From: Escherichia coli
GTDB taxonomy: Bacteria > Pseudomonadota > Gammaproteobacteria > Enterobacterales > Enterobacteriaceae
Reading direction: 5' to 3' (one strand)
Length of the DNA stretch: 64,000 bases
Assembly: GCF_003790525.1 (NCBI RefSeq)
Contig: NZ_CP033635.1
In this document: piece after piece, positions 15,799 to 16,310 of the stretch
How positions within the stretch are numbered: the first letter of the stretch is position 1
Layout: each line of letters starts with the position of its first letter
The notes under the pieces: generated by a model
The model's database searches: none
The model's input: only the letters and a program-made list of their open reading frames with translations
What the model was told of the DNA's origin: nothing
Made by a program: the position numbers and the translations under genes

Positions 15799-16310
15799 TT
15801 GATGGTAACTCTGACCATTAACCGTAAACCGCAGGGTATTTTCAGTAAATCACCGGCAACGCCGCTGCAGGATAAAACGGACACAGCATACAAAATGAAG
15901 GCCGGTGACCAGATACCACAGTTGAACGAGAAACAGAAACCTGCTGATAAAACACCGTGGCGACATGACAAAACGCCAGAGCAAAAACCGTAAGCGCATT
16001 ATTCGTCTTGTGGAACTCTGGCCTGAGTCATTCAACCGGGAAAAAAACAAAACCACTTAAAGTGGGGATACCTGACGACCTGATACAGGATATCGCCATC
16101 CGAGAACTGGCGTTTGGCGCTGGTACATTACATGCAGCAGTGGCGTCTTATGTGCAGTCTCCGCGCTATTACCGTGCGTTAATAGCAGGTGGCGCCCGTT
16201 ACAACCTGAACGGTCAGCCGTGCGGGGAAGTGACACCACAGGAACAGAAAGAGGCAGAGACCCGTTTAATGATGCTGAATGACCGACGAAAAGACAGAAA
16301 ACCTCGTTGA
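15799..16310 (+). pseudogene. FinO/ProQ-domain RNA-chaperone gene disrupted by two frameshifts at A-runs
   Basis: Three consecutive frames: 15799-15993 (K/P/T-rich FinO-like N-terminus), the ATG-15965 frame (MTKRQSKNRKRIIRLVELWPESFNREKNK), and 16008-16310 (PLKVGIPDDLIQDIAIRELAFG...YYRALIAGGARYNLNGQPCGEVTPQEQKEAETRL), matching the ProQ/FinO core (ProQ: ERFPHCFS...RPLKIGIFQDLV...RVDLDGNPCGEL). Frame switches coincide with A5 (15983-15987) and A7 (16040-16046) runs. Confidence 0.55.

Follow-up and report, generated by a model that had tools for sequence, protein, structure and literature searches.

Two heritable frameshift lesions interrupt an island-borne ProQ/FinO-family gene in Escherichia coli

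The ProQ/FinO-family coding sequence at positions 15802-16310 (+ strand) of the window, by which we mean the whole 64,000-nucleotide stretch of E. coli contig NZ_CP033635.1 that was analyzed, is broken by two heritable frameshift lesions, a 2-nt deletion and an extra A in an A-run, so that the equivalent of a 169-aa protein is spread over three frames. This copy is very probably a non-functional, heritable relic of an island-borne gene. The locus is an ordinary pseudogene in a degraded aerobactin island and has already been annotated by RefSeq; the present analysis adds the precise lesions, the order in which they arose, and how frequent the alleles are.

The list of open reading frames shows three that cover the locus, encoding 64 aa in frame 1 (15799-15993), 31 aa in frame 2 (15965-16060), and 100 aa in frame 3 (16008-16310), all on the + strand. 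When the intact 169-aa relative P0014 was used as a tblastn query, the three frames were matched with a joint E-value of 5e-72: residues 1 to 55 in frame +1 at 15802-15966 with 96% identity, residues 56 to about 83 in frame +2 from 15965 up to the TAA stop at 16058-16060, and the rest to residue 169 in frame +3, ending at 16307. The split over three frames that the preliminary description of this DNA had reported is real and far above chance. The first segment (15802-15966, frame 1) encodes an N-terminal extension of about 55 residues (MVTLTINRKP...TPWRH) and its frame remains open until the TAA at 15991-15993. The second segment (15965-16047, frame 2; identified from the ORF list and tblastn) encodes the start of the FinO core (MTKRQSKNRKRIIRLVELWPESFNREK) and meets the TAA stop just after the A-run, which gives the 31-aa ORF. 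It aligns with ProQ residues ~22-44, which we take to be helix 1 of the ProQ structure. The third segment (16048-16310, frame 3) encodes the remainder of the core (KPLKVGIPDD...RKDRKPR) and terminates at the TGA at 16308-16310, as seen in the frame 3 ORF, in the tblastn match, and in alignments to 5nb9 and 1dvo. No continuous ORF therefore encodes the FinO domain: it passes from frame +2 into frame +3 at the A7 run, and the extension is in frame +1. Reading of the sequence revealed a single Shine-Dalgarno-like motif (GAGG, 15787-15790, +), located 8 nt from TTG 15799 and 11 nt from ATG 15802; it belongs to this upstream start, whichever of the two codons is used, and no Shine-Dalgarno motif was seen before the core ATG at 15965. 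PGAP places the start of the pseudogene at the ATG (position 3103 in L001, corresponding to window 15802). A tblastn search found no second FinO-like copy in the window.

For family assignment, the core was repaired conceptually by dropping one A from the run at 16041-16047, yielding a 114-aa protein. The repaired core matched Pfam PF04352 with E = 3.4e-21 over model positions 5-107 of 109 and was 100% identical to the E. coli database protein P0001; precomputed PF04352 matches are present on all listed homologues. Its best structural-sequence match was the ProQ N-terminal domain (5nb9, E = 9e-12), followed by FinO (1dvo, E = 2e-11), and it also matched NMB1681 (3mw6) and the FinO domain of RocC (7rgu) with E-values of 1e-7 to 3e-9. 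The scores against the NCBIfam models were 50.8 bits for the ProQ equivalog NF003434 (cut-off 127) and 50.5 bits for FinO NF010317 (cut-off 136). Because these scores fall far under the cut-offs for ProQ proper and FinO proper, the island gene belongs to a separate subfamily inside the FinO-domain family. The basic, low-complexity N-terminal extension was found in 74 family members of at least 150 aa, the intact relatives stop 5 to 15 residues past the FinO domain, and each of the 1,422 places matched in E. coli lies on a chromosome.

The first shift cannot be placed from the window sequence by itself, as neither frame 1 nor frame 2 is closed between 15965 and 15993. For comparison with the window, 22 related loci were taken from complete genomes and from other assemblies (23 alleles sampled in all). 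DNA alignments against six full-length alleles (L009, L012, L013, L015, L017, and L018, encoding 158-174 aa) and the resulting junction table located the first lesion at ~15965-15966 (+), where one AT unit of CATATG is gone. The full-length alleles read TGG CGA CAT ATG ACA, with the extension in frame with the core, and each of them carries CATATGAC at the junction, compared with CATGAC in the window lineage; in the window and its close relatives the sequence CATGACA puts the extension and the FinO core into different frames. The first shift had been assigned in the preliminary description to the A5 run at 15983-15987 (+), a position that is ruled out, as the run is A5 in all of the intact alleles examined according to the run-length table of the 23 alleles and the alignment. 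In allele L010 (P0007, 168 aa, found on one contig), a change from A5 to A4 in combination with the 2-nt deletion restores a single frame, and the A5 run is thus a site of past compensation, not of damage.

The second lesion is the A7 run at 16041-16047 (+), which the alignment with L008 and the run table show to be one A longer than in the A6 allele. The run had been correctly recognized as the site of the second shift, although its coordinates had been given one position too low, as 16040-16046. The family majority at this site is A5CC (Lys-Pro) and the nearest intact allele has A6. Over 531 nt, the window and the A6 allele L008 are identical except for the extra A and one SNP. The L008 assembly also has a YadA-like gene upstream. 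The A6C state arises from a C-to-A substitution in A5CC, which changes Pro to Thr.

The 23 alleles form a nested series of states. Alleles with CATATG together with A5C2 (or A6C3 in L013) are full length; CATG is combined with A5CC in L011 and L019, with A6C in L005-L008 and L025, and with A7C in the window, L001, L002, L020, and L024. From these nested states the order of events follows: the 2-nt deletion came first, then the C-to-A substitution that converted A5CC to A6C, and then the addition of an A. In the ancestral form, the ~55-aa basic low-complexity extension is joined to a FinO domain of ~110 aa, for a total of ~158-185 aa. Loss of the AT unit from CATATG at ~15965 cut the core from the extension and from the only start with a Shine-Dalgarno-like motif, such that translation after the deletion would run for 63 codons to the stop at 15993, 26 nt beyond the core ATG. 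From then on, the 114-aa core could presumably be made only by inefficient re-initiation, and its expression was probably poor already at this step. The substitution that followed lengthened the homopolymer, and replication slippage is the likely source of the additional A, with the core frame now ending after 31 codons. Only three products could remain: a 63-aa N-terminal peptide, a 31-aa peptide, and a C-terminal fragment of 82-100 aa, which would be initiated at an internal GTG or TTG and miss the beginning of the domain. RNA-chaperone activity would be expected of none of the three.

The alleles with intermediate states also bear on how the 114-aa protein should be annotated. In strain IMT5155 (APEC; L025, 2373-2880), PGAP calls a 63-aa gene and a 114-aa gene that overlap, and the severed N-terminal piece is annotated there as a 63-aa "hypothetical protein". 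The alleles with the 2-nt deletion alone (L011 and L019) are already labeled frameshifted by PGAP. Since the 2-nt deletion severs the extension and the start codon that bears the Shine-Dalgarno-like motif, the 114-aa "ProQ/FINO family protein" (P0001), called intact in some RefSeq strains, is in fact an N-terminally severed remnant.

To determine how common the two lesions are, we used 151 nt spanning both of them as a megablast query, which matched 422 of 5,426 complete E. coli genomes. Among 60 evenly spaced hits from those 422, 46 were 100% identical over 150 nt, and the two-lesion allele is present in roughly 320-345 of the 5,426 complete genomes (~6%). With the A6 allele as the query, an exact match was obtained in only 1 of the 5,426 complete genomes, APEC IMT5155; the other 39 of 40 among the matches listed were 99.3% identical, which over a span of 151 nt corresponds to one extra base, and 344 genomes matched at 99% identity or more. 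Carriers of A7 come from many hosts, countries, laboratories, and projects. In SMS-3-5 (NC_010498), we directly confirmed CATG, A5, A7, and the flanking remnants as in the window; this genome was reportedly sequenced by the Sanger method. The fragment proteins recur in independent assemblies: 97 contigs have the 31-aa piece, 63 have the 100-aa piece, and 178 have an 82-aa member of the fragment cluster. In LH10-b-1, HB-Coli0, and SMS-3-5, the locus carries the PGAP label "ProQ/FINO family protein, frameshifted".

These counts decide between the two options that had been put forward for this locus, a true pseudogene or an intact gene disguised by homopolymer sequencing errors. It could be argued for the latter that the second lesion lies inside an A-run and that an otherwise identical A6 allele encoding the 114-aa protein exists (P0001, on 23 contigs). 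However, roughly 320-345 complete genomes, the output of many projects, have A7 versus one with A6, it is present in the reportedly Sanger-sequenced SMS-3-5, the first lesion is a 2-nt deletion that lies outside any homopolymer and is common to the whole lineage, and even an A6 gene is without the N-terminal extension and the original start codon. The allele counts and the non-homopolymer first lesion effectively rule out sequencing error at the population level, and we assign it practically no probability, and the choice between decay and error is settled in favor of decay. The A7 allele is heritable, and movement of the island probably contributes to its spread. Across genomes it is 98.9-100% identical over 701 nt; that it has acquired so few further changes counts against reading it as a relic and points to a recent inactivation, after which selection has had little time to show.

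A heritable A7 run could nonetheless be a site of recoding or switching, where +1 frameshifting, transcriptional slippage, or A6/A7 phase variation produces some functional 114-aa protein. A-runs are known slippage sites, skipping or deleting one A restores the core frame exactly to give P0001, and the backgrounds on which A6 and A7 occur are nearly identical. Against this reading stands the history of the run: A7 is limited to one recent sub-lineage in which the run grew from a recent C-to-A substitution, and the other alleles have A5CC (the majority, Lys-Pro), A5C4, or A6C3 within one continuous frame. Because the A-run is not conserved, programmed recoding is unlikely. In the local context there is no evident stimulatory element (an A-site codon that is rare or a stop, or a strong upstream Shine-Dalgarno-like element), the local RNA fold is ordinary (z = -1.2), the core ATG has no Shine-Dalgarno motif, and seven A's make a short run for E. 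coli RNA polymerase to slip on efficiently. The heptamer A-AAA-AAC favors -1 frameshifting, whereas a +1 shift is needed; since the -1 frame meets a stop shortly downstream, a programmed -1 frameshift at this heptamer was ruled out. Phase variation would be expected to leave frequent run-length polymorphism between closely related strains, but ~343 of the complete E. coli genomes have A7 and 1 has A6, unlike a locus that switches frequently. We consider it very improbable that the run is a recoding or switching site, and the same slight chance is given to the more specific idea that the A6/A7 tract of an island FinO-domain chaperone gene is an on/off switch, rare and reversible, or permits slippage at low efficiency. 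Were that idea true, the "dead" copy could be reactivated, and the intact relatives, which neighbor replication genes of P4/PICI-like satellites and CP4-type islands, might control element replication or immunity through element-encoded antisense RNA.

We also asked what the pseudogene could still encode. One candidate is the truncated C-terminal ORF of 82-100 aa, with its start at TTG 16008 or the internal GTG; it might be expressed and retain a function, for instance by binding RNA in part or by interfering with the chromosomal ProQ. This ORF is intact, it keeps the equivalents of ProQ Y70 and R80, and it is called as a protein by non-PGAP pipelines. It is, however, without the first ~28 residues of the FinO core (ProQ ~22-44), including the conserved "WP.LF" motif, and it has a His at the position equivalent to R58. 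Moreover, no Shine-Dalgarno motif is evident before either possible start, and a promoter-consensus scan of 15300-17500 returned 0 sites, which is weak evidence. A functional C-terminal product is accordingly a very doubtful proposition, and the reading of the window copy as a non-functional relic is preferred.

The sequence of the repaired core is in line with such a relic. Of 69 positions conserved in at least 90% of the family, the repaired core is off consensus at 6-7, compared with a family median of 2. The concave-face residues R58, Y70, and R80 of ProQ bind RNA, and R58A abolished the binding of all seven RNAs tested (PMC10168233). In the repaired core, the Y70 and R80 equivalents are present and the R58 equivalent is His; this residue is Arg in 99% of 73 full-length relatives. 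The His by itself does not prove a loss of function because the intact 164-aa relative P0010 (252 cluster members) shares it. Together, the deviations are no more than suggestive of relaxed constraint on the repaired core, because several more distant intact members deviate equally.

With respect to orthologues, the preliminary description had anticipated that true decay would be accompanied by relatives that also lack a continuous frame. This holds for many close copies, which are broken in several independent ways, but not for the wider family, in which many more distant members are intact (158-185 aa); intact full-length genes of 158-174 aa are also present among the evenly spaced E. coli hits. 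In L003 and L014, a 5-nt insertion in the N-terminal region has severed the 114-aa version by a different event. The stop of the severed N-terminal ORF in L003 (~3270-3275; also in L014) overlaps the start of the 114-aa core (ATATGA). Such a stop/start overlap is an arrangement typical of translational coupling, and this lineage may still express the core efficiently. L016 contains two in-frame stop codons, and L020 is truncated by an IS3 insertion. The gene has been lost repeatedly in E. coli islands, which fits a function that became dispensable after domestication of the element.

Outside E. coli, full-length homologues of 175-177 aa with 66-71% identity are found in Salmonella and Citrobacter. 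Full-length relatives in L021 (6001-6528), L022 (6001-6528), and L023 (6001-6534) lie between a primase gene (DUF927, or D5_N/Pox_D5), with or without an SSB gene, and a PerC-family gene. The elements that carry them look satellite-like, and an AlpA-family gene is called in the Citrobacter element L023. This arrangement fits a subfamily that originally served a regulatory or replication module of integrative elements. In the Salmonella element (L021, 1065-1758), two C4 antisense RNA and two isrK copies were detected at the Rfam gathering level ~4-5 kb upstream of the intact FinO-like gene; Rfam found neither RNA in the Citrobacter element or the window. The FinO-domain family has been reviewed (PMC9977716); for the island/satellite FinO-like subfamily we found no functional study in the literature, where it is mentioned at the level of annotation (PMC6174562).

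The surroundings of the pseudogene are those of a decayed island. Positions 1-36078 of the window are collinear with NZ_CP100530 (5 mismatches and no gaps over 11.7 kb), and this region is the aerobactin (iuc/iutA) island, which is dense with IS fragments and other pseudogenes. Within it, iucD (window 332-1665, - strand) is flagged as frameshifted by PGAP in the near-identical NZ_CP100530, and the window has an ORF of 425 aa at 388-1665; the flag may reflect a true truncation or a matter of annotated length. Directly upstream of the FinO-like pseudogene, at 14708-15399 and ~14100-14650, lie a degenerate IS1 transposase gene with a frameshift and an internal stop, a fragment of a transketolase gene, and a further piece of a transposase gene. 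SMS-3-5 carries these remnants as well. The native upstream neighborhood of the gene has been replaced. On the other side, convergent with the pseudogene, are a UCP030791-family gene (16328-16876, - strand), an AlpA-like gene, a gene for a 190-aa hypothetical protein, and a YagK/YfjJ (inovirus Gp2-like) gene. Searches of these neighbors with NCBIfam and PHROGs gave a weak excisionase-domain match for the AlpA-like protein and replication-initiator-like matches for YagK/YfjJ. Farther downstream is the usual CP4-type backbone with YeeP-like GTPase, DUF932, antirestriction, RadC-like, and YeeU/CbtA genes. The FinO-like gene is paired with the convergent UCP030791-type gene in every examined E. 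coli locus with an identifiable downstream gene.

The preliminary description had also suggested that a FinO-like chaperone would imply an antisense-RNA-controlled function nearby, and here our searches gave no support. Rfam detected no known RNA family, FinP included, in the whole window at the gathering threshold and nothing in 15300-17400 at E-values up to 1; the scan for sigma-70 consensus promoters described above likewise found no site. Right after the pseudogene stop, at 16318-16358, we observed an imperfect palindrome with 17-nt arms that are 88% complementary and a 7-nt loop, which overlaps the 3' end of the UCP030791-family gene and holds ACAGCGCTGT twice. The predicted RNA fold of 16300-16375 has a free energy of -30.8 kcal/mol (z = -4.0), the hairpin is weaker in other alleles, and neither strand of the palindrome has a U-tract. 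Possible roles are the binding of a protein or the formation of a hairpin where the two convergent transcripts have their 3' ends.

Taken together, the alleles provide a clean example of stepwise gene death, in which a dinucleotide deletion was followed by a homopolymer-lengthening substitution and then, most likely, by slippage. They also call for caution with the 114-aa protein annotated as intact in related strains, which is a severed remnant. The wider family with an N-terminal extension and a FinO domain, found in islands and satellite-like elements of E. coli, Salmonella, and Citrobacter, is perhaps worth a study of its own.

Among known systems, FinO of F-like plasmids resembles the island gene in its FinO domain, in the architecture of the intact relatives (a basic N-terminal extension and a FinO domain with no C-terminal domain), and in its location on a mobile element. 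The island gene differs in that it resides on a chromosomal island or satellite rather than in a plasmid tra region, in that no FinP-like RNA was found near it with Rfam, and in that the window copy is frameshifted. With ProQ, the island gene shares the motifs PLK(I/V)GI, LR.A, RY, and R.DL.G.PCGE as well as the Y70 and R80 equivalents, but the island protein is without the linker and the Tudor-like C-terminal domain, ends at 169 aa, carries its extension at the N-terminus, and has His in place of R58 in the window lineage. The minimal FinO-domain proteins, namely N. meningitidis NMB1681, the L. pneumophila RocC domain, and the small plasmid-encoded FinO-domain protein PcnR (PMC8053102), are likewise small and extend barely beyond the FinO domain, and some are on mobile elements; their relationship to the island gene is distant, and the copy in the window, unlike them, is a pseudogene. 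In RefSeq E. coli, including LH10-b-1, HB-Coli0, SMS-3-5, and hundreds more, this locus shows no substantive difference: its sequence and context are identical to those of the window or nearly so, with the IS1 and transketolase remnants upstream and the UCP030791, AlpA, and YagK/YfjJ genes downstream.
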